From the UHGV virus genome UHGV-0139594: a stretch of 32,537 nucleotides of DNA; one strand, 5' to 3'. The position numbers and the translations under genes are program-made. Every line of letters starts with the position of its first letter. Position 1 is the stretch's first letter. Below are positions 6,993 to 31,927 of the stretch, one piece after another. This DNA is from a virus. The notes below the pieces were generated by a model, which made no database searches, had not been told where the DNA came from, and saw only the letters and a program-made list of their open reading frames with translations.

Positions 6993-7923
6993 ATTAACCG
7001 GCTATGTATGGGATGGTTGCGCTGCATCAGGCATGAAATTATCCAGCGTGGCAATTATGGCCCGCCTGGCTGATTTCAGTAATGACGAAGGTGTGTGCTG
7101 GCCATCAATTGAAACTATTGCCCGTCAGATTGGCGCGGGGATGAGTACCGTCAGGACGGCTATCGCACGGCTGGAAGCAGAAGGCTGGTTAACGCGTAAG
7201 GCGCGTCGCCAGGGTAACCGCAATGCGTCGAATGTTTATCAGCTTAACGTTGCGAAGCTTCAGGCAGCGGCATTTTCTCAACTGTCAGATTCTGACCCGT
7301 CAAAATCTGACGCATCAAAATCTGACCCGTCAAAATTTGATGCGTCGAAATCTGGCAAAAAAGCGGGTTTTCACCCGTCAGAATCTGGCGGGGATCCGTC
7401 AGTAAAATCAAAACATGATCCGTCAGATAAAAAACCTTCTCGTCCGGACGCTTCGCAACCGGACACGCAGACGGCTGAACAGGAGTTTTTAACTCGCCAT
7501 CCTGATGCGGTTGTATTCAGCCCTAAAAAGCGCCAGTGGGGAACGCAGGATGATTTGACCTGCGCACAGTGGCTCTGGAAAAAAATCATCGCCCTGTACG
7601 AGCAGGCCGCCGAATGTGACGGCGAGGTGGTTCGTCCCAAAGAACCGAACTGGACAGCCTGGGCAAACGAAATTCGCCTGATGTGTGTGCAGGATGGTCG
7701 TACTCACAAACAAATCTGCGAGATGTACAGCCGCGTCAGCCGCGATCCGTTCTGGTGCCGTAACGTGCTCAGCCCGTCGAAGTTGCGGGAAAAATGGGAT
7801 GAGCTTTCCCTGCGCTTATCACCGTCCGTCAGCACGTACACCGAAAAACGCGAAGACCCGTACTTCAAATCCAGTTACGACAACGTGGACTACAGCCAGA
7901 TCCCGGCAGGATTCAGGGGGTGA
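6982..7923 (+). CDS. Replication initiator / replisome organizer (lambda O-like role) with N-terminal wHTH
   Basis: N-terminus MARLADFSNDEGVCWPSIETIARQIGAGMSTVRTAIARLEAEGWL is a typical phage replication-protein wHTH; the gene contains an internal iteron array. Confidence 0.8.
   Translation: MSTKLTGYVWDGCAASGMKLSSVAIMARLADFSNDEGVCWPSIETIARQIGAGMSTVRTAIARLEAEGWLTRKARRQGNRNASNVYQLNVAKLQAAAFSQLSDSDPSKSDASKSDPSKFDASKSGKKAGFHPSESGGDPSVKSKHDPSDKKPSRPDASQPDTQTAEQEFLTRHPDAVVFSPKKRQWGTQDDLTCAQWLWKKIIALYEQAAECDGEVVRPKEPNWTAWANEIRLMCVQDGRTHKQICEMYSRVSRDPFWCRNVLSPSKLREKWDELSLRLSPSVSTYTEKREDPYFKSSYDNVDYSQIPAGFRG
7283..7402. repeat. Iteron array (putative ori) inside the replication initiator gene
   Basis: Tandem 15-bp units ACCCGTCAAAATCTG / ACGCATCAAAATCTG / ACCCGTCAAAATTTG / ATGCGTCGAAATCTG / ACCCGTCAGAATCTG plus degenerate copies, followed by an A-rich stretch. 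Encodes the SDSDPSKSDASKSDPSK low-complexity linker. Confidence 0.7.
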
Positions 7924-21113: not shown

Positions 21114-22344
21114 CACCATTCCGTCGAATACGCTGGTTCCGCTGTTTTATGCGGAAATGGATAACTCGGCGGCGAATACTGCACAGGACAGCGGGGCATC
21201 GTTGCTGATTGGTCACGCCAATAACGGTGCAGAGATTGTTGCCAACAGTCTGGTGCTGATGCCGTCGGCAGACTATGCACGCCAGATTTGTGGTGCGGGA
21301 AGTCAGCTGGCGCGTATGGTCGAGGCTTATCGCCAGACCGATCCGTTTGGCGAGCTGTATGTGATTGCCGTTCCGGAAGCCACAGGCGCGGCGGCAACGG
21401 TTACGCTGACGGTGACCGGAGCAGCAACCGAAACCGGCACGGTGAATGTTTATGTGGGACGTACCCGCGTGCAGGCACCGGTGACCAACGGCGATAACGT
21501 CACGACGATTGCCAGCAGTATCCAGGATGCCATCAATGCCGTTCCGGCCCTGCCGTTTACGGCCTCATCTTCGGCAGGCGTGGTCACGCTGACCGCGCGT
21601 CATAAGGGGCTTTGCGGGAATGAAATTCCTGTCAGCCTCAATTACTACGGCTTTGGTGGGGGCGAAGTGCTGCCAGCGGGCGTACAGATTGCCGTGGCGA
21701 CGGGGAGCGCCGGAACGGGCGCTCCGGTTCTCACCGGTGCGGTGGCTGCAATGGCGGATGAGCCGTTTGATTATATTGGCTTGCCGTTCAACGACACGGC
21801 CTCCGTTAACACGCTGGTGACCGAGATGAACGATACCAGCGGTCGCTGGAGCTATGCGCGTCAGCTGTATGGTCATGTGTATACGGCAAAGATCGGCACG
21901 CTGTCAGAACTGGTGACCGCAGGTGACCAGTTTAACCAGCAGCACATTACCCTGGCGGGATACGAAAAAGACACTCAGACGCCAGCCGACGAGCTGGCGG
22001 CAAGCCGTACCGCCCGCGCAGCGGTGTTTATTCGCAACGATCCGGCACGTCCCACGCAGACCGGTGAGCTGGTGGGTATGCTGCCTGCACCGAAGGGGAA
22101 ACGGTTCACGATGACCGAGCAACAGACCCTGCTGTCTCATGGCGTGGCAACGGCGTATGTCGAAAGTGGGGTAAACGCTCTACGTGGCATACACAACGAT
22201 TTACAAGAGCTAAACGAAAGGCTTTACCGTGGTTTTAGCCTGACCGTCGAGGAAGTCGAGATCACCTTGTCCGGCATATTCAGATTCAACTTTCAGGCCC
22301 AGCAGCGCGGTAATCAGATCCACTTCAACACGGTTTGCGTGTGA
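21097..22344 (+). CDS. Contractile tail sheath protein (Mu gpL-like), probably 3'-truncated
   Basis: MTISFNTIPSNTLVPLFYAEMDNS ... GSQLARM ... VTLTARHKGLCGNEIPVSLNYYG match Mu-like sheath signatures. Protein is 415 aa against an expected ~490, and the sheath-like sequence seems to stop near 22150. Confidence 0.7.
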   Translation: MTISFNTIPSNTLVPLFYAEMDNSAANTAQDSGASLLIGHANNGAEIVANSLVLMPSADYARQICGAGSQLARMVEAYRQTDPFGELYVIAVPEATGAAATVTLTVTGAATETGTVNVYVGRTRVQAPVTNGDNVTTIASSIQDAINAVPALPFTASSSAGVVTLTARHKGLCGNEIPVSLNYYGFGGGEVLPAGVQIAVATGSAGTGAPVLTGAVAAMADEPFDYIGLPFNDTASVNTLVTEMNDTSGRWSYARQLYGHVYTAKIGTLSELVTAGDQFNQQHITLAGYEKDTQTPADELAASRTARAAVFIRNDPARPTQTGELVGMLPAPKGKRFTMTEQQTLLSHGVATAYVESGVNALRGIHNDLQELNERLYRGFSLTVEEVEITLSGIFRFNFQAQQRGNQIHFNTVCV

Positions 22345-22716
22345 ACGGTAATGAGCCTCAGAGAAATCATTAACCGCTACCAGCATAGCATCAGAACGGT
22401 TTGGATATTGGCGGCTGTATTGTTCCAGGTCACGAGAAGTAACAGCGTTAATACTGCCGACGTGTTTCATCTGGAAAAGTTTGTTTGACCATTCCTGACG
22501 TTTAGAGGCGTTCCAGTCGCTTTGAGCGTAAGGCGAGGTTTCCCCAGCTACCTGCACAAACTGATCAATCAGGTCGGTAAGAAGAATGCTGTTTTCTGTA
22601 TGATATTGCACATCGAACAGATCGAGATTAGTAATCAGGGTATTAAGTGCATTCTCATAAGCAAAAGGAGTTACTACCGCAGTATTAACGCCAAAATATG
22701 TTGATAAATCATTCAT
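22210..22716 (-). CDS. Hypothetical protein (168 aa), last gene of a minus-strand operon
   Basis: ORF in a 3-gene minus-strand cluster; its 3' end overlaps the sheath ORF tail. No confident homology. Confidence 0.45.
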   Translation of the reverse strand: MNDLSTYFGVNTAVVTPFAYENALNTLITNLDLFDVQYHTENSILLTDLIDQFVQVAGETSPYAQSDWNASKRQEWSNKLFQMKHVGSINAVTSRDLEQYSRQYPNRSDAMLVAVNDFSEAHYRSHANRVEVDLITALLGLKVESEYAGQGDLDFLDGQAKTTVKPFV

Positions 22717-22730
22717 TATTATTTTCCTTG

Positions 22731-23114
22731 TTAAGTCGTAGGGATCGCAAGTTCTTCATAACTAGCAATTACAAAGCCGAGAGATTGCAGTTTTGCAATA
22801 ACACTTGCCTTTTCCATGCTGTTAAATTCAATCCCATCTTCAGCCAGAATAACGAAAGTAGGATGTGCAACCACTACGCTTTCCTGTCCTTCATAAGCCG
22901 GTTCAACTACTACGTGAGCAATATCAGATGCGGTTGTTGCTTTGGTGCCATCGGCTTTCAGCAAAGCCCCGACAATAAGATCGTCAGTGAGAGGTGAAGC
23001 CAGTTTGACGAGGCGATCTTGCAGCACCGGATCAGCAGCGTAAGCTACTACCTTACAGCGTGAACGGGAGTTATCCGCATTCACTACTTTTAATTTTCCA
23101 TATGGGTTAGCCAT
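22731..23114 (-). CDS. Hypothetical protein (127 aa)
   Basis: ORF in the same operon. Weak resemblance to head-decoration-type proteins (ADGTKATTASDIAHVVVE), not reliable. Confidence 0.45.
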   Translation of the reverse strand: MANPYGKLKVVNADNSRSRCKVVAYAADPVLQDRLVKLASPLTDDLIVGALLKADGTKATTASDIAHVVVEPAYEGQESVVVAHPTFVILAEDGIEFNSMEKASVIAKLQSLGFVIASYEELAIPTT

Positions 23115-23118
23115 AAGA

Positions 23119-23316
23119 TTATTTTCCTTTCAGTTGTTTAATTTTAGATTTAAGGGCATCAGCAAGACTAACCGCATCAGCCGATTTAAATAATTGAGCA
23201 GTGGTAGAACGAAGACTTTCGGGAGTAACTCCCAACAGTGCGGCAACCTTAATGAGGTTTTCATCACTAACAATCATCGTTTCCCCGTCTTTGCTGATAA
23301 TCATTTCTTGTTTCAT
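23119..23316 (-). CDS. Hypothetical small protein (65 aa)
   Basis: Start taken at the internal ATG (MKQEMIISKDG) with an AGGAA-type RBS; first gene of the cluster. Confidence 0.4.
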   Translation of the reverse strand: MKQEMIISKDGETMIVSDENLIKVAALLGVTPESLRSTTAQLFKSADAVSLADALKSKIKQLKGK

Positions 23317-24300
23317 AAATAACGTTCCTGTTAGTGCCAGACAAATAAAAAGCCCCAATGCCGTAAGAGGTTAATTCTGACCAGCAAAGGGGCTTTAACG
23401 TGCGGGCAATTACATAATTGATAAGTTAAACTATAAGAGGATTAAACATATCAGCAAATACACTTTTTAAATATACTTGATGATATGCTTAAAGGGTGAA
23501 TAGATACTCCTGAAAACATGCTCTTAGGAAAACATGCGGAATCAATCAGGAATATCTATTCGGGGCGCGGTGGCCAACCGCTATCTTTCATGGTGTGGAT
23601 GCACCAGTCAGATTTTAAGGAATCACTATTCCAATCTACTCACAGATTAAATTTTTAATAATGATTAACTACACCAACAGTAATCTACCGTTTCAGAAAA
23701 TCGTTTTTACAACCAAAGCTTATAGATCCGCATTCTATAAAACCCGTTTTGCTATCAATATTTCCAAAGTTTATTGCACCATTCTTAGCTAAACTCTCTC
23801 TGCTTGCGGCTAACGCTATGCAGATGATTGTTTTTGACAACAACTTAATAGATTGTTCTGTTACTAACTTCTGTCATTAAATAATAGTTTAATGATGTTA
23901 GTAAATAGTTATAAAATATAACTATCAGTGTAAGGCTCTTTAATATTTTCTGACAAAATAAGGAGCTTTAGGATAAGCATAGATGAAAAATAAGAGCGGG
24001 AAGGGCAAGGAGATAACACCTACCCGCTTTTATCAAAATTAAGCACAATGCCTAACAACATTCATCAACACAACGTAGAAACAATCAACAATCAAAGAGG
24101 GAGTTATGATTATTCTAAAACTTCTTGAGAGATGGAAGGTAATATTTGTTAGAGGTTAATGCCACTCAACCTTTGAGGCTATCACCTTCCATATGCAGGG
24201 ATTTATGACAGTAGAAGGATTAACACCAGTCAAAACCTTTTTATCTACCCCTAATATCATTATATAATGAAATCGTTATAAATGCAAATGATTTTCATTA

Positions 24301-24609
24301 TCATTTAGAGAAAATAGCACTTTTTGCTAAATCGTCTACTAATTGCTGAATCTCTTCACTTGCAGCCTTTAACGTGCTGGCGGTGTCTGTGATGGTTTGA
24401 GTGCACATCTTGGCATCGTCCTCAATTAGCTCTAAATCGCTCACCAGAGAGATAAAATCGTCAAGGCTTACATTCACCTTCATTAAGCTAATAACGCATT
24501 GAGAGAGCGTGTAATCGCATAAATCTGAATAGGCTTGATTTATTCTTGTTTGTAGTGAGATAGTCAGATCTAAAAGTTGTTCCATTGCATTGCTAATATC
24601 TTCTTCCAT
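24301..24609 (-). CDS. Hypothetical acidic protein (102 aa)
   Basis: AAGGAG RBS; start overlaps upstream stop (TAATG); AT-rich. Confidence 0.5.
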   Translation of the reverse strand: MEEDISNAMEQLLDLTISLQTRINQAYSDLCDYTLSQCVISLMKVNVSLDDFISLVSDLELIEDDAKMCTQTITDTASTLKAASEEIQQLVDDLAKSAIFSK

Positions 24610-24854
24610 TATGCGGCTTCTCCTTGTAATGCATCATTAATCATATTCAATACGATGTTAAAAGGTGTCTTGAGCGTCAGCACTTCATCACGATAACGCT
24701 CTAATGCTTCGTAGTCTTCTGTTTCTTTTGCCAGTCGGATTAACTCAGCATAGTTTTTTGCATCAGACAGGATCATCTGAAATAATTGTGTTTCTTGAAT
24801 ATAGCCAATCATTATTTTTCCTTTTTCGAATATTTTCATTGGGCGCTTATACAT
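24609..24854 (-). CDS. Hypothetical protein (81 aa or shorter)
   Basis: Coupled to downstream gene; alternative start at internal Met with AAAGGA RBS. Confidence 0.45.
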   Translation of the reverse strand: MYKRPMKIFEKGKIMIGYIQETQLFQMILSDAKNYAELIRLAKETEDYEALERYRDEVLTLKTPFNIVLNMINDALQGEAA

Positions 24855-24869
24855 ACACCCATCATTTTA

Positions 24870-25253
24870 TTAGTTAGAACGTTTGTTAGAAGCTAATGTA
24901 TCTTCTAAATGAGCCATCAGATCGACTTCCGATGCACCACCTACACAATTATTGAAAGCGTTAAATCCCAAAAAATGATGATAGGAGCTAAACCCTAAAA
25001 GTTGCCAACGCTTCAGAGTGCCATCAGAAATTATTGTTTGTTTTCTTGTTCTTGGGCGAAAGTAAACGCCTGGCATTGACTGGATTATTTCTAATTCTTT
25101 ATTACTTAATTCAGGGGATTCTATTTCAAGAATAAATATTATCTCTTCCCCTGGAATTTCATTATTGGTATGTGTCGGTGGACGTTGTCTTTTTGAATTG
25201 AAATTACTGTTTTTTTCAATACGTTTTAAGTTATTCTTTTTCTTTCTTCCCAT
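24870..25253 (-). CDS. Hypothetical protein with basic N-terminus (127 aa)
   Basis: AAGAGGG RBS; N-terminal Lys/Arg-rich segment MGRKKKNNLKRIEKN. Confidence 0.5.
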   Translation of the reverse strand: MGRKKKNNLKRIEKNSNFNSKRQRPPTHTNNEIPGEEIIFILEIESPELSNKELEIIQSMPGVYFRPRTRKQTIISDGTLKRWQLLGFSSYHHFLGFNAFNNCVGGASEVDLMAHLEDTLASNKRSN

Positions 25254-25627
25254 TTTCCCTCTTTTTATGTGGATTATAAAAACTTAATGCCATTGTTACG
25301 ATGAATATCGCCATAAATGCATTTGCCATATGTATTGCCCGATCTGTTGTTATTGATTGTTTGTGAGAAACAATTCAAAATCTTTGTTTAATTTCAAAAG
25401 ACGAAATGTAGTGCTGTTAATCCCTTCATAATCCAGCACACCGAACGATGTAAAATGATTTAACCAACAATTTCTGATAGTGCGCTGTAGCCGCCTAAAC
25501 TACAAAAGCTAACCACTGTCGGTGGTGAAAACTCTATTTCCAAAATAGCTTTTAAAATGTTGTATCCGCTTTCAGTTATTTCAATAGTTTTGTTTCCTAT
25601 AGTGATGTTATAAGTCATTTATTCTCC

Positions 25628-26221
25628 TTAGAAGGGTAGTGAATCATATATTGTGCTCTCACTTTTGAGATCAATTATCAAAGAGTCAAAATCATTTTCA
25701 CAAAGATAGATATTCTTTGAATCTAATGCTCGTTTTACAAAATCTTCTGTTTCTTCGTGCGGTGGTTTCTTCTTATCAAGGGAAAGAAGCCAAGTAAAAA
25801 TTTCGGGCCGCTCAGGGAACTCTGGCTCTTGTGTTTCTTCTTCAACGATGATTTCGGAAACATTCAATATTTCATTAGATTCGTCTTCTTTCTCAGAAGG
25901 ATCAGGTAGTGATGATTCTCCTTTTGGAATATCAAGCACTCGATAAAGGTTAGAGCTTCCTGGTCGTGCATCTTTTATAATTAATCCCATTTCGAGCAAT
26001 TTCTTAACCCTTTCTTCTGCTGCTCTTGGTGTTATGCCAAAAACATCGCCTATCTTAGCGTAAGAGGGAAATGCACGATCAAACCCTCTCAGATAGCAGT
26101 AAAGGTTTTTAGCACTATCTGTAAATTTATGCCCGTTTACTTGGCTTATTTTTAGAATCCACATAGGAACTTTTACAAATTGTTCTTCATTAATCATTAA
26201 AAATCTCCTTGATGTAATCAC
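25628..26221 (-). CDS. Rep-like winged-helix protein (putative replication initiator of an iteron replicon)
   Basis: N-terminal wHTH (NLYCYLRGF...SYAKIGDVFGITPRAAEERVKKLLEMGLI) resembling replication-initiator DNA-binding domains; acidic C-terminal half; iteron array about 1.2 kb upstream. Confidence 0.55.
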   Translation of the reverse strand: MITSRRFLMINEEQFVKVPMWILKISQVNGHKFTDSAKNLYCYLRGFDRAFPSYAKIGDVFGITPRAAEERVKKLLEMGLIIKDARPGSSNLYRVLDIPKGESSLPDPSEKEDESNEILNVSEIIVEEETQEPEFPERPEIFTWLLSLDKKKPPHEETEDFVKRALDSKNIYLCENDFDSLIIDLKSESTIYDSLPF

Positions 26222-26250
26222 GCTCTACGGCGCTACTATGGTGATAAAAA

Positions 26251-26421
26251 TCACTTGCTTTTGTTTGAGAGTGTTTCAGCCTCTCTTTTCAACATATCAA
26301 GAATGTAATCTGTAACAGTGATACGTTTACTTCTGGCTTCTTTAAACAACACCTGAAATACTTCATCAGGAATATGAAAGCAAGTGCGTGGTTGTCTTTT
26401 CTTTTCTGTAGTTTCGCTCAT
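26251..26421 (-). CDS. Small ribbon-helix-helix-like protein (56 aa)
   Basis: MSETTEKKRQPRTCFHIPDEVFQVLFKEARSKRITVTDYILDMLKREAETLSNKSK; GGAGAAGGAGAA RBS; below track cutoff. Confidence 0.5.
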   Translation of the reverse strand: MSETTEKKRQPRTCFHIPDEVFQVLFKEARSKRITVTDYILDMLKREAETLSNKSK

Positions 26422-26442
26422 AGTTTTCTCCTTCTCCTGTTA

Positions 26443-26625
26443 TTATTCTTTCTCTGCTTCTGCCTTACGCAGTTCATCAATAATTTTTAGTGCATCGTCA
26501 AAGCATTTTTCACGCTCTGGATAACCTCTACTCCTTGCCATATTACGATTCATTACTATTTGATGTCGTGTTAGCTCACCTTTTTTAAATGCCTCTGCGA
26601 CGTGTTTCGGTGTAAACCATTTCAT
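26443..26625 (-). CDS. Hypothetical small basic protein (60 aa)
   Basis: ORF immediately upstream of the RHH gene on the same strand. Confidence 0.45.
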   Translation of the reverse strand: MKWFTPKHVAEAFKKGELTRHQIVMNRNMARSRGYPEREKCFDDALKIIDELRKAEAEKE

Positions 26626-27454
26626 AAAAACTCCTTATTCAGTTAAAAGAAAAAAAACACCTTGCAAGCCTGACGGCTTCAAAGTGCATTGATTTTGATT
26701 ATTTAGAGAAGAATGTTTTTCTGTCCCTCTAATACCTATTATTACATATAAAGAAACATTTGTCAATACCCTTTTCGCAAAAATACGATCTTTTTCAGCA
26801 GCTTAAAATTTTTCTTAGCAATTCGTGCTCTTATGAGTACTCCTATTCTTCCTTATTCTCTAAAACGCTCTCTGACGAGGTTTTGATAAATACAATACAT
26901 TCCCTTATGTAGAGGCTGTTTAGCTCGCCAGAGGCTTATTTAAGCGGTAGAAACTTATTTAACCTTCAACTACTAAAACCATTCTTTCTTTTTTGTTTGT
27001 TGTTGGTTGTTGTCTGTGTCTATGTGCTAACATCGCTAATGCGTAGCACACAAGGTTATTGCACTCGTCAGAGTATTGCACAATAGATTTTCTCTTAAAT
27101 AGATTGATGATCGTTAGATTGGCGTAAGCCTCATCAATGGAACTATTGAAGCGCACAGCGCATAGACACTAACAACCATTCGCTTACGCTCAGGTTATTG
27201 CACATAGTAGATTACATATTCGTTGTGAGCGGCATTAGCGAACATAGATCTACTAACTAACATCAACAAACAAAAACTATGTGTTATGACAAGCAGTCTA
27301 ACGACTAACACTCTAACTTGTGCAAGGTTCTGGCGAATGCCAATAGATTAAGGGATAGTCGTTAGACTCCCCTAACGGGTATCCCTATAATTATTCTTTA
27401 AAGATAAAGGAATTTATAAAAGATAATTTAATTGTAGTTTGATAGTTGATCTAA

Positions 27455-27600
27455 TAGGTAACAAAATTCTGTAGGGGTGGCTAACAGTTTTCTGTGGGGG
27501 TGTCTAACATAATTCTGTTAGGGTTGGGGTAACAGTTTTCTGTTAGGGTGCATATTTCTTTAAAAGTTAAGGATAACAGAATTCTGTGGGGGTAGCTCAC
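27455..27600. repeat. Iteron array: five copies of a ~23-bp unit (AACAnnnTTCTGTnGGGGTnG)
   Basis: AACAAAATTCTGTAGGGGTGG, AACAGTTTTCTGTGGGGGTG, AACATAATTCTGTTAGGGTTGG, AACAGTTTTCTGTTAGGGTG, AACAGAATTCTGTGGGGGTAG at roughly 23-bp phasing. Confidence 0.7.
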
Positions 27601-28709
27601 AGTGACCTACCGTTACATCCATTTATCACATAACATCTGTGCAATGATCTTCTAAAAGTGTTTCTTGCTACCAAAATTAAACATCTAAAACAGGCTTAAA
27701 TTCAATGTAATTGATGATTAATCCCTGTGTAATTCCTACGTAAAAATTCAATGAAAAGTAGCTTAAAAGTGCAATTCTTACTTTCTTCACTTTTACATCA
27801 CTTTCGCAAAGCCTTGTGTAATGCGGCTACAGCGCACTATCAGAAATTGTTGATTAAAAATCAATCTATTATTTGTCGAACAAGTTTCTTTCACGTGTTG
27901 AAAATTTATGTTTAAATTTGCTTTCAATCTTTAATGTGCAATCACTATCAACATAAAAATAAAAAACCTTCTATTATATTTCATAGCATACAAAAGTCAA
28001 TAGAAGCCCTCTCGTGCTCCTACGTAAAAAATCCACCACTTTTCCCCTGATACATCAACTCAAGGCGTTCCATGTGTTCCTTAGTGCATATTACGATTAT
28101 TATGTTAAATGGATTTTGGCCCATATTTTGACCTGCACCCGCATAAACACTGGTTTCATCGCTTACAGCCCTTGTGAGACGTGGTGCTGTTTCTAGCATC
28201 TGATCCGACATAAAACCGATCATTCTCGTGTTTAGTGAAAGTTTAGTGAGAGACATTACAGAAAGGCTTTCTGTGTAATGATTTAATAGGTAAAAACGAT
28301 GTTGATTACGCAAGAAAATTCCTTGCTGATATTTGGGGATTCTGGATTTTCCAGATCGGGGGGCGGTGAAAATCGCGTTAAGCACTTCTCGCAATCTAGC
28401 CATAAGGGAAGGGATAAAGGTATTTAGATGTATTTATAGCTATTTATGGCTATTTATTTTTTATTTACCTTAATTTAAAAATAGCCTTATAAATCAATAA
28501 GATACAGGACTATCTGTTTATATTTTAATCAATTAAATCAAGTTTAATACCCTTAAACCACCTGAAAATAACCTTAAATACCCCAATAATTAATTTTAAC
28601 GATTCCTGTGCTCTCTCCTACTTTGCAAAAAGGCAAAAAAAGCCCATAGAGGCACAAAAATATTAAAACCAATAACTCAATAATGCCTCTACAAGAGCTT
28701 CTCTAACTG

Positions 28710-29261
28710 TTATTTTTGATTGAGCTTACATCGATCCCATTGTTCTGTCGTTCTTGTGATACGATCGCTTATTGCAAAATTTAATAGCCAAGAATCATAA
28801 GCATAAACCTTGCTTTTATCATCTGCCATCATAAACTTGCCGTTAGCATTCAGTTTTGGCGATATCAAATATGTTCCATTTAATCTGTTAGCCTTGAAGC
28901 TATCTGCATATAAAGTTACTTGTGCGTATCCCTGAACACGTAATGCCCCTAAACGTCCGTTTTCGATTGATGCAATAGAGTATTGGCAAAGATAATTTTT
29001 GGCAGCAGGAGTCGTTTTCACTCCTTCAGTTTTTCGTGAATTATTTGATTGCGAGCTTCGAATAGAGGATGAAGGATAAGAGTATGAATGATTTTTATAA
29101 GATGAAGGGGCATAAGAGCCAATCCGGCACGTCTTACCAACAGCTATACACGAGTTACCACAAGGTATTCCTTTTTTGCAGTTTTTAGCAACTGCGGTAG
29201 AAGTTCCCCCTACAAACAACGTTGTAAAAATCATCATCCTCACAAATGCAGACCTGCGCAT
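28710..29261 (-). CDS. Secreted Cys-rich protein of unknown function (183 aa)
   Basis: N-terminal signal peptide (MMIFTTLFVGGTSTAVA), Cys cluster CKKGIPCGNSCIAVGKTC, Ser-rich linker, ~100-aa C-terminal domain; AT-rich. Confidence 0.55.
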   Translation of the reverse strand: MRRSAFVRMMIFTTLFVGGTSTAVAKNCKKGIPCGNSCIAVGKTCRIGSYAPSSYKNHSYSYPSSSIRSSQSNNSRKTEGVKTTPAAKNYLCQYSIASIENGRLGALRVQGYAQVTLYADSFKANRLNGTYLISPKLNANGKFMMADDKSKVYAYDSWLLNFAISDRITRTTEQWDRCKLNQK

Positions 29262-29655
29262 ATAACCTCCCTTTTTAGATTATTCTTATGCTATACACTT
29301 GCTTAAAAAAATAAAAGTGCCCTCTAACCTTTATCGTTCTCCATCACAATTTGAGAAGTAAGAGCAGCAACCTCAAGCGATGATCACGTTTGCGCCGATT
29401 TCAGAGAAAAAGACAGTAACTGAACTCACTATGAAGGCTAAACGTATCTTTACACTTGATGAAAACGTTCAAAAAACAACCTAACCCCAAAATTCAACAA
29501 ATAACAACATATTGTTTTTAAAAGAAAATTAAATCTACATCAAATATTGGTTGACGTAGATTGAGGTGAATAGTAGACTATTAGGGTAAATTGCCATTCT
29601 TGCAACATCATTTAATGCATGTTCTAATCCTCCTATCCCAAAACCGGAGGAAGTT

Positions 29656-29814
29656 ATGCATTTACTTTCAAAACATCTTCACACTATTCACTTTCTCGTT
29701 ATTGATGTATTCATTGTGGCTATTAGTTACCGCATTTGCATCGCTTCCAGTGAAGAGATGGACGCTGTTGCAATTATTGCTCAAGCAATGGCGATGTTAA
29801 CTAAACGACTTTAA
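29656..29814 (+). CDS. Hypothetical small hydrophobic protein (52 aa)
   Basis: GGAGG RBS 5 nt before ATG; converges on a hairpin shared with the next small gene. Confidence 0.35.
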   Translation: MHLLSKHLHTIHFLVIDVFIVAISYRICIASSEEMDAVAIIAQAMAMLTKRL

Positions 29815-29880
29815 TAATTTCACTATCAGGCGCATAAACACATCTTTGATCGCTGGATGTGTTATGCGCCTACTGGTGAT

Positions 29881-30033
29881 TCAATCCTTAAGCCATTTCA
29901 ACTCACTAAGGAGTTTTCTTTCTTCGTTCTCTCTCTGTTTACGCTCTAGCCAGGCTTTTCCTTCTGGCGTAGGCAGGAACTTACGAGCGTGAATCTTGCG
30001 GTTATTACGTTTGATAGCTGCAATGTTTTTCAT
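29881..30033 (-). CDS. Hypothetical small basic protein (50 aa)
   Basis: AGAGG RBS; MKNIAAIKRNNRKIHARKFLPTPEGKAWLERKQRENEERKLLSELKWLKD. Confidence 0.35.
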   Translation of the reverse strand: MKNIAAIKRNNRKIHARKFLPTPEGKAWLERKQRENEERKLLSELKWLKD

Positions 30034-30639
30034 CGTGTGCCTCTGTATTCATATGAAAATTAACAAGTTACATACTACACAGGGAGACTACGCATAAAAC
30101 ACAATACAAGTAAAGATACATTTTCAAGACAATAGGAGCCATAAAGCGCCTTTGATGGTTATACCAAAAAATAAGCGCCGTAGGCGTATCCACTAAAAAG
30201 GGCTTTTTCACAAAAGCTATGAAGTCTTAGCAGTTCTTCTCTTATCAGGCACCCGTTGTACTCCGGTGGACGAAACCGTGCTAGAGCTTGATTCTTTCCC
30301 GATCAAGTTAGGTTTTGAAGAGGTGGGCTTTAATCCACTATTGCACTTAAAACTCTTCCCATCATTTAGCCTGTTTATCCTCTGCAACGTCTCACGACGT
30401 GTAGCATCATTGGACACCGCGCCAGGTGTGGAACATCTTGCTAAGAGTTTTGGTAGAAGGTTTAGAGACGGTGGCACGTCTTCCAGCTTCAAAGGAACTT
30501 GTTACGAGGTTGAGCCTGGGAACTACTCGCCCATACGTGTTAAACTACCAAAAGCCCATAACAACGTATAGGCGTTTGTAAGTGATAACAGAAGATACAA
30601 TTTCTTAGAGAAGTTAAGCTAAGTTATTGATTTTCTTGA

Positions 30640-30685
30640 TGGTGCCGATAATAGGAGTCGAACCTACGACCTTCGCATTACGAAT
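30640..30685 (-). repeat. Inverted 46-bp copy of the thrW 3' end (anticodon loop to CCA): att core remnant
   Basis: TGGTGCCGATAATAGGAGTCGAACCTACGACCTTCGCATTACGAAT is the exact reverse complement of tRNA positions 31..76 (window 109..154). Confidence 0.85.
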
Positions 30686-30889: not shown

Positions 30890-31168
30890 TGATTAACCCG
30901 TTTAATTGTACTCCTCATGGGCAATCAGCAGTCCTCAGAGTAATGGAATGGCAGAAAGGTTCGTGAAAACGATGAAGGAAGACTACATCGCGTTCATGCC
31001 GAAACCGAATGTAAGAACGGCATTGCATAATCTTGCAGTGGCGATCGAACATTACAATGGAAACCATCCGCACAGTGCGTTGGGTTATCGCTCTCTGCGA
31101 GAATATCGACGTCAGCGGGTAACGTTAACTTAAGATACACCCCCTGTCTGGAAATAAGGGGGCAAGAA
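30890..31168 (+). mobile_element. IS2-like (IS3 family) remnant: 3' end of transposase OrfB plus terminal repeat
   Basis: [59 protein letters not shown] resembles the IS2 OrfB C-terminus; downstream TGTCTGGAAATAAGGGGGCAA resembles the IS2 right end. No upstream transposase sequence. Confidence 0.6.
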
Positions 31169-31174
31169 CAATGA

Positions 31175-31927
31175 TCAGATTCCCTGGTGAGTAAGAATTT
31201 TACTTTCTGAACTCCTCTGAGAGTATTGACTTGGAGAAATACCAAAATAACGTCTAAATACATAAGTAAAGTATGAGACACTGGCATAACCACAGACCTT
31301 AGCTACTTTACTAATAGGATAACAACGAGTGCTGAGTAAATATTCAGCCATTTGCATCCTCTCATCAAGTATGATCTTACTGAATGATACCCCCTCTTCT
31401 TTCAATTTCCTCTTTAGTAAACTTTCGCTGAGATATAATCTTGATGATATATCCTTAAGACGCCATGGTGCAGATAAATCCGTATGAATAATCGTTTTAA
31501 CTTTAGCCCCTGTGCTTTTCAAACATCCAAACAGAAATACTCCAAATTGTTTTTCAGAAGAAAATGCAGAGAGACATGTAAAAGCAATAGACTCATCAAA
31601 AATTTCTATGTATTCAGCACAGTGATTAGCCCAACTAATTAATCCTTTAATTAAACTGAAGTCAGCAAAGTTTATTTTTAAATAAGATGGATATTCCCTA
31701 CAATCAGAAATATCCCTTAAGTTATTAGCTTTCAAATAGCGACTAATAAACTCAGCGCCAAAATCCGCCACTATCACTCTTTCAGGATACGTCAGGAAAA
31801 AATCTCTAGAGCTAGAGTCGACAAGTACAGATGAACCTCTCTCCAGAAACACAATCTCTTTTCCTAAATAAACATCAAAGGACTCCAAAATCAATATAAC
31901 TGAACATGTAGTTGCCATATCATCCAC
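31175..31927 (-). CDS. AraC-family transcriptional regulator, AppY/Rns-like
   Basis: C-terminal double HTH (WRLKDISSRLYLSESLLKRKLKEEGVSFSKIILDERMQMAEYLL...VAKVCGYASVSYFTYVFRRYFGISPSQY); AT-rich gene with AT-rich upstream region. Confidence 0.8.
   Translation of the reverse strand: MDDMATTCSVILILESFDVYLGKEIVFLERGSSVLVDSSSRDFFLTYPERVIVADFGAEFISRYLKANNLRDISDCREYPSYLKINFADFSLIKGLISWANHCAEYIEIFDESIAFTCLSAFSSEKQFGVFLFGCLKSTGAKVKTIIHTDLSAPWRLKDISSRLYLSESLLKRKLKEEGVSFSKIILDERMQMAEYLLSTRCYPISKVAKVCGYASVSYFTYVFRRYFGISPSQYSQRSSESKILTHQGI

Follow-up and report, generated by a model that had tools for sequence, protein, structure and literature searches.

The gene at positions 28710-29261 (minus strand) of the window—the whole stretch of 32,537 nucleotides analyzed here, which is E. 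coli DNA—is accessory, “moron”-type cargo of tRNA-integrating phage-like elements, and its product is built from two portable modules, a cationic four-cysteine mini-domain and a C-terminal domain predicted to fold as a small beta-barrel. Our main reading of this protein, to which we would give a probability of about 40%, is that it is a non-enzymatic envelope binder consisting of a cationic anchor, a tether and a barrel, and that it probably protects the lysogen. Since databases already list it as a “hypothetical protein,” the existence of the gene is not news; likewise, an exported orphan protein on a prophage-like island belongs to a familiar category. It is the specific architecture that is undescribed.

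The gene and the anatomy of its product

The coding sequence (28710..29261, minus strand) comprises 183 codons and a stop, begins with ATG, and corresponds to RefSeq WP_001323651.1, a “hypothetical protein” of FORC 064 and BA92. A strong Shine-Dalgarno sequence, AGGGAGGT (29266..29273, minus strand), can be read upstream, where GGGAGG ends 5 nt before the ATG. In our promoter and terminator scan, no sigma-70 promoter rose above the level of shuffled sequence. The gene has a GC content of 38.6% and the block around it ~35-37%; silencing by H-NS would be plausible for DNA so rich in AT.

Comparison with orthologues from four other loci gave a dN/dS of 0.12-0.14, with synonymous sites near saturation; the open reading frame is a real gene under clear purifying selection, beyond a chance ORF. 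The constraint falls in two blocks: the Cys module (pN 0-0.12 vs. pS 0.7-1.1) and the barrel (pN 0.11-0.15), while the linker between them is relaxed, with pN values of 0.34-0.39 for the linker and the signal peptide. The exact 183-aa protein is present on at least 1000 contigs, unnamed every time, and the 1.1-kb locus that carries the gene is complete in 97 of 5426 complete E. coli genomes and partial in ~500 more; K-12 does not have the gene. Other E. coli carry truncated or split alleles (P0103, 61 aa, and P0040, 120 aa), indicating that the gene is decaying in some lineages; the product of the 61-aa allele keeps the signal peptide and the Cys module only.

An earlier note on this DNA had described a secreted protein with a signal peptide, a cysteine cluster, a Ser-rich linker and a C-terminal domain of ~100 aa. 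Both the ORF and this four-part anatomy were confirmed, the signal peptide as a prediction and the C-terminal domain at ~96 aa. Residues 1-25 (29187..29261, minus strand) form the predicted signal peptide, with a charged n-region (MRRSAFVR), a hydrophobic core (Kyte-Doolittle peak 2.3) and then TAVA, an AxA site at which signal peptidase I would cut after A-V-A. The same junction, A-x-A followed directly by [KQ]NC, is kept in unrelated proteins that bear the four-Cys module, and we infer from the sequence that the protein is exported and cleaved after AVA. No lipobox ([LVI][ASTVI][GAS]C) was found at the cleavage site, where T-A-V-A-K-N-C precedes and includes the first Cys; because A-K-N stands before that residue, the protein does not have the form of a bacterial lipoprotein.

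The protein contains six cysteines: C28, C34, C38, C45, C92, and C178. The first four belong to the cationic mini-domain, residues 26-48 (29118..29186, minus strand), KNCKKGIPCGNSCIAVGKTCRIG, which has a net charge of +5 and is nearly invariant in the family; the C28/C34/C38/C45 cluster itself reads NCKKGIPCGNSCIAVGKTC, with the spacing C-x5-CG-x2-CI-x5-C. A low-complexity linker rich in Ser, Tyr and Asn follows (residues 49-87; 29001..29117, minus strand), 64% of which is S/T/Y/N/P; it varies in length in the alignment and is predicted to be disordered (pLDDT 30-40). The remainder, residues 88-183 (28713..29000, minus strand), is the predicted C-terminal beta-barrel, marked by the C92...C178 pair, an S-P motif and T-E-Q-W-x-x-C. 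The charge of the mature protein is about +15, within a family range of +9 to +15. When the whole protein was first modeled with AlphaFold the pLDDT was 63, because residues 1-84 are disordered or unresolved.

Scans of the protein, its relatives and its neighbors against Pfam (E ≤ 1), NCBIfam and PADLOC returned no informative family; NCBIfam HGGxSTG matches were rejected as noise (8-11 bits vs. a cut-off of 29). Searching PDB sequences with both modules produced nothing beyond weak matches to PQQ beta-propeller blades (E 0.1), a similarity that explains the multi-stretch matches of P0083, P0084, and P0090. Homology to a common periplasmic housekeeping protein, which the earlier note had named as grounds for refutation, was not found; every homologue is a “hypothetical protein.”

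Accessory cargo of a tRNA-Thr element

In FORC 064 and BA92 the gene lies within an island between paoD and tRNA-Thr(thrW)/proA that has its own integrase. In the window, a lambda-like prophage whose integrase ORF is at 169-1332 comes after an intact tRNA-Thr gene (79-154), and our gene lies in an AT-rich island (22225-30685) that is the remnant of a tRNA-Thr (thrW) integrative element—the AT-rich, horizontally acquired DNA that the earlier note had suspected. The end of the element nearest the gene is marked by an att core copy, a partial tRNA-Thr 3' end at 30636..30685 (minus strand). This 50-nt stretch is an inverted repeat of 109-158 in the tRNA-Thr (98% complementary), and homology to the FORC 064 island ends at 30685. 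Since the att cores at 109-158 and 30636-30685 are inverted and both the prophage and the remnant lie between them, an inversion or a tandem-integration history at thrW is suggested. The neighboring prophage also contains, at 7270-7392, six direct repeats resembling TCAAAATCTGAC with 15-nt spacing, as is usual for the replication origin that lambdoid phages have within the O gene.

One island ORF (25628-26221, minus strand) matches phage replication-initiator (O-like) PHROGs (E 1e-8), which makes this a phage-like integrative element; the other nine ORFs in the scan matched no PHROG. In appearance the island is a small satellite or resembles a cryptic phage, its type being uncharacterized and common to other Enterobacteriaceae (L014-L016). 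In E. coli it looks degraded, and the remnant in the window has no integrase of its own; taken together with the truncated alleles in other strains, the missing integrase means that the function of the gene may be dispensable.

Several other stretches of the island deserve description. A 36-nt inverted repeat (97%) has arms 2.3 kb apart, at 25459-25494 and 27823-27858; one of these coincides in part with the end of a 52-aa ORF, the other is in gene-free DNA. The ~2 kb downstream of the gene (26650-28700) holds short ORFs only, with no annotated gene in the RefSeq relatives, nothing credible in Rfam and, among phage records, only a 46-nt match to phi92-like phage terminal repeats; as other genera carry variable secreted-protein genes at this position, it may be decayed cargo. 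Beside the att copy, ~200 nt of non-coding DNA (30370-30563, minus strand) are 71% identical to the stretch that follows tRNA-Leu in an Enterobacter locus (L003, 7571-7774), with indels that are not multiples of three. The idea that this is a universal leader or RNA was discarded: only the Enterobacter tRNA-Leu island shares it, the tRNA-Gly islands are without it, and Rfam does not match it. The stretch may belong to the element end or have a regulatory role.

Full-length relatives of the protein (182-193 aa, 56-69% identity) are confined to the Enterobacterales, in genera that include Enterobacter, Klebsiella, Citrobacter, Kosakonia, Serratia, Yokenella, Buttiauxella, Kluyvera, and Scandinavium; Morganella has relatives of 33-37% identity, and a relative in Moellerella is recognizable by its architecture. 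Wherever an examined locus still has its tRNA gene, our gene is the first one next to it: ~500 nt past tRNA-Gly(CCC) in Klebsiella and other Enterobacterales (L011, L014-L017) and ~530 nt past tRNA-Leu(CAA) in Enterobacter (L003). In the window it is ~1.4 kb from the partial tRNA-Thr. The genes that come next vary: among their products are a secreted protein of 165 aa, a membrane protein with DUF3761 and a protein of 134 or 143 aa, and the Klebsiella orthologue has a superinfection-exclusion gene of the SieB family immediately downstream; beyond these variable neighbors are a small integrase-family gene and then phage genes. A search for a conserved operon partner found neighbors that differ from genus to genus, and tblastn of the Enterobacter neighbors against the window found none of them. 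With varying neighbors, none of which occurs in the window, the gene behaves like a “moron,” an accessory unit complete in itself that fills the cargo slot closest to att in several types of element. PADLOC defense models matched neither the protein nor its barrel relatives nor the variable neighbors.

A different association had been proposed in the earlier note, which pointed to a nearby AraC-type regulator on which expression of the gene might depend. The 250-aa AraC-family gene in question (31175-31927) adjoins the C-terminal fragment of an IS3-family transposase (30906-31133); it lies past the att copy at 30636-30685, behind that fragment. The segment with AraC and the IS fragment is found in 549 E. 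coli genomes (≥80% coverage), as against 97 for the 1.1-kb locus of our gene, and the pair recurs at thrW-region islands of different types. In at least one genome, that of ETEC H10407, the AraC segment is by a different integrase and our gene is not in the ~20 kb shown, whereas in strains with our gene, such as FORC 064 and BA92, the AraC position is occupied by IS66 and then directly tRNA-Thr/proA, or by an autotransporter gene. The regulator is thus outside the element and is not co-inherited with the gene at 28710-29261, and the proposed link is not supported.

The loss of this link weighs on the interpretation of the protein as a host-interaction or virulence factor, surface-exposed or released, that would bind a host ligand under AraC control. 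We consider such a role very unlikely, even though the protein is strongly basic, as are heparin-binding proteins such as NHBA, its gene is on horizontally acquired DNA, the carriers of the 1.1-kb locus include ETEC and STEC isolates, and its barrel, as modeled, has a fold in common with Neisseria host-binding barrels. Besides the separate inheritance of the AraC gene, there is no lipobox, autotransporter or secretion-system signal that would take the protein to the surface, genera associated with plants and the environment (such as Kosakonia, Buttiauxella, and Scandinavium) have members of the family, and the barrel has its relatives among phage genes. The protein matches no family of adhesins, toxins or effectors. 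The earlier note had left the choice between an envelope and a host-interaction factor: the envelope location survives as the best reading, but host interaction is without specific support, and the recurrent neighbors are phage and mobile-element genes.

A portable four-cysteine mini-domain

The string AKNCKKGIPCGNSCIAxxKTCRIG, which is almost invariant within the family alignment, is present also in unrelated proteins. A profile search with the four-Cys module matched 529 database proteins. Among the best 120 of these 529 the median length is 83 aa, with one copy of the module in 75 proteins and two copies, joined by Ala/Pro-rich linkers, in 42; the first Cys is found at residues 22-33 in most of 117 module proteins. 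Some matches are 42-aa precursors, from which cleavage is predicted to leave nothing but the module, of ~21 residues. As a consensus we obtained C-x2-G-x-P-C-G-N-[ST]-C-I-x5-C-[HR], which residues 28-45 of our protein fit. The residue after the fourth Cys is His in 94 and Arg in 36 of 159 instances, and the net charge of the module is +2 to +5 in 218 of 233.

A genome scan located 44 loci with the module, across phyla. The lineages that carry it include Enterobacterales, Orbaceae (Gilliamella), Oceanobacter, Pusillimonas, many Gemmatimonadota and the cyanobacterium Nostoc, as well as MAGs labeled Chloroflexi, Bryobacteraceae, Myxococcales, Deltaproteobacteria, Alphaproteobacteria, and Actinomycetes. 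It usually stands directly after the signal peptide and may be alone, in tandem or fused to other domains. The fusion partners, reached past a low-complexity linker, include Endonuclease I (Gilliamella, Orbaceae; E 2e-40), SNase-family nucleases (two cases) and bacterial SH3 domains (SH3b/SH3_3; at least four cases). One of the SH3 fusions is encoded by the P2-like Pseudoalteromonas phage C5a, in an accessory slot that has a transcriptional regulator on one side and the portal gene on the other. A weaker partner match (E 0.02), common among the Gemmatimonadota and metagenome matches, is to an Ada-Zn-binding-like domain. The loci L031-L033 and L039 (Gilliamella/Orbaceae), L044, and L063 encode secreted nucleases of the Endonuclease I or SNase family with the module directly after the signal peptide; fusions of this kind are probably the reason why some tiny module-only proteins are labeled “deoxyribonuclease-1” by JGI.

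The four-Cys module has no match in Pfam, NCBIfam or PDB sequences, and the searchable literature returned nothing relevant for the motif strings, for “sunset domain” or for prophage periplasmic exclusion proteins. AlphaFold gave it a pLDDT of ~40. It is a widespread, portable, conserved and uncatalogued mini-domain.

The company that the module keeps could be taken to mean that the protein is directed at nucleic acids or metals, with the Cys module as a zinc/copper or DNA-binding knuckle that would sequester metal or bind DNA, either in the periplasm or outside the cell. The fusions with Endonuclease I, two SNase-family nucleases and Ada-Zn-like domains are consistent with this, as is the strongly cationic character of both the module and the mature protein. 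The His that follows the fourth Cys in 94 of 159 module instances would also fit, but in the E. coli protein this residue is Arg. Moreover, periplasmic cysteines are disulfide-bonded as a rule; the module is found on peptidoglycan-type SH3b domains as well as on nucleases; and the barrel has no nuclease or known DNA-binding signature. On balance, a nucleic-acid- or metal-directed function appears distinctly unlikely to us. A more sweeping proposal, which we rate as doubtful, is that the 23-residue module is a hitherto undescribed, phylum-spanning extracytoplasmic targeting or anchoring domain (an alternative to a lipid anchor) or a polyanion- or DNA-binding knuckle. Bacteria and phages would add it to secreted nucleases, SH3b domains and the barrels of phages so as to keep these at one defined site of the envelope; in that case the prophage would supply E. 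coli with an envelope-tethered blocker of attack by phages or enzymes.

The barrel domain and a proposed tethered envelope binder

The C-terminal domain, which the earlier note had set apart from the rest of the protein, is confidently predicted to be all-beta. Modeled over residues 84-183 with a broadened alignment, it reached a pLDDT of 95.4 and a pTM of 0.86, and in the predicted model nine antiparallel strands close into a small barrel. Five residues are invariant across 21-22 diverse sequences: C92, Y94, P135, W175, and C178 (C9, Y11, P52, W92, and C95 in domain numbering). As C92 and C178 are in the first and last strands, a disulfide that clamps the barrel is likely.

A HMMER scan of 1.8 billion representatives with the barrel found 30 clusters only. 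In many of them the barrel stands directly after the signal peptide and is followed by IalB/VasI-like and other uncharacterized domains, and a few (P0074, P0078, and P0080) repeat the order of Cys module, linker and barrel; another round of protein searching with the profile of the barrel yielded further “hypothetical” fragments and nothing else. Residues 86-181 match phrog_2578 (E 1.4e-17) and phrog_14768 (E 7e-17), and the HMM search independently recovered the same relatives. Members of these two PHROGs are signal-peptide proteins of temperate phages, for example a 255-aa protein of Klebsiella phage ST11-VIM1phi8.1, and they have in common with the E. coli barrel the signature C...Y...SP...TEQW..C, including the invariant end Cys pair. 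They differ from it in arrangement: in the PHROG proteins the barrel comes first, followed by C-terminal IalB/VasI-like, “KDPxSAKF...NSKNSYGGY” or other domains, whereas in the E. coli protein it is C-terminal, after the Cys module and linker. In the Klebsiella phage and at a metagenomic siphophage locus, the barrel protein is encoded in or beside the tail-gene module, adjoining an Arc/Arc/Bro-N antirepressor cassette; the sieA gene of P22 occupies a comparable slot. The barrel is a recurrent phage-borne exported domain found in accessory slots by immunity genes.

The folds nearest to the barrel model are ligand- and protein-binding barrels: Cap15, PhiA/PliC, NHBA, ACP, and YceI. Two further explanations of the protein start from this list. 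In one, it is a periplasmic inhibitor of lysozyme or peptidoglycan hydrolases like MliC, PliC, PhiA or ACP, with the barrel plugging the active site of an incoming muramidase, be it a phage tail lysozyme, a T6SS amidase/muramidase or host lysozyme. A predicted periplasmic location and a small, disulfide-bearing eight-stranded barrel are features that the protein would have in common with the lysozyme inhibitors, MliC and PliC being exported eight-stranded antiparallel beta-barrels, a description that the prediction for our protein matches; furthermore, a prophage gains by blocking muralytic tail enzymes. The likeness does not extend to the sequences, however, as there is no similarity by sequence or profile to MliC, PliC, PhiA or ACP: aligned by hhalign with E. 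coli MliC, the barrel alignment scored a probability of 0.1%, and Pfam MliC (PF09864) gave no match at E ≤ 1. MliC and PliC carry the signature loops SxSGAxY and YxxxTKG, and these inhibitory motifs are absent from the conserved columns of the barrel. Nor do any of these inhibitors have a counterpart to the extension formed by the Cys module and linker. Since Cap15 and OmpW score as high as PhiA, the likeness to PhiA is at the level of the fold only, and we regard a hydrolase inhibitor as unlikely.

The other is a carrier for small molecules or lipids, akin to calycins or YceI, which would shuttle a hydrophobic ligand through the periplasm. YceI is among the nearest folds, but no family-level sequence match was obtained, the barrel would, with its ~96 residues, be near the lower size limit of barrels that enclose a ligand cavity, and a carrier renders no obvious service as the cargo of a mobile element; such a role is, to our mind, highly improbable.

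The modules, the linker, the basic charge, the barrel and the position of the cargo by immunity and exclusion genes instead led us to infer an anchor-tether-binder design. Guided by its Sec signal peptide, the protein would pass into the periplasm and be cut after AVA, and its six cysteines would be oxidized there, the four N-terminal ones giving a small knotted or metal-bound knuckle and C92-C178 clamping the first and last barrel strands. The mature protein, at ~+15, could then act as a tethered ligand trap: the cationic Cys mini-domain would dock on an anionic component of the envelope (LPS or phospholipid head groups, a peptidoglycan-associated polymer or DNA), the ~40-residue disordered Ser-rich linker would serve as a leash that gives reach, and the beta-barrel would be the specificity domain that binds or blocks an envelope target. 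The most likely benefit would be protection of the lysogen, either by superinfection exclusion or by inhibition of an incoming lytic or penetration enzyme. Both modules sit directly after signal peptides in other architectures.

This plan resembles that of lipoproteins, in which an element after the signal peptide, a disordered tether and a folded domain follow one another in the same order; the anchor of a lipoprotein is an acylated cysteine, however, whereas the putative anchor here is a cationic four-Cys module of 23 residues with no lipobox. In its position as accessory cargo the gene resembles those for SieA and SieB (P22/lambda), Cor, Llp and T4 Sp and Imm, which are accessory genes of temperate elements near att or immunity cassettes with products targeted to the envelope, although there is no relation in sequence or fold. 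Further, most exclusion proteins are membrane proteins or lipoproteins, while the E. coli protein is predicted to be soluble and basic. The cargo position and the SieB neighbor are circumstantial support for protection; morons also encode virulence or fitness factors, and no named homologue or defense-system model backs any function of the protein.

The Cys motif is no quirk of one protein, as it is conserved in lineages as far apart as Enterobacterales, Gemmatimonadota and cyanobacteria. Should the anchor-tether-binder reading prove wrong, the gene is simply another small orphan, carried as cargo by an island in decay. Should it prove right, Gram-negative bacteria would have a further, novel means of placing proteins in their envelope, and the protection of the envelope by prophage genes would gain a new class.
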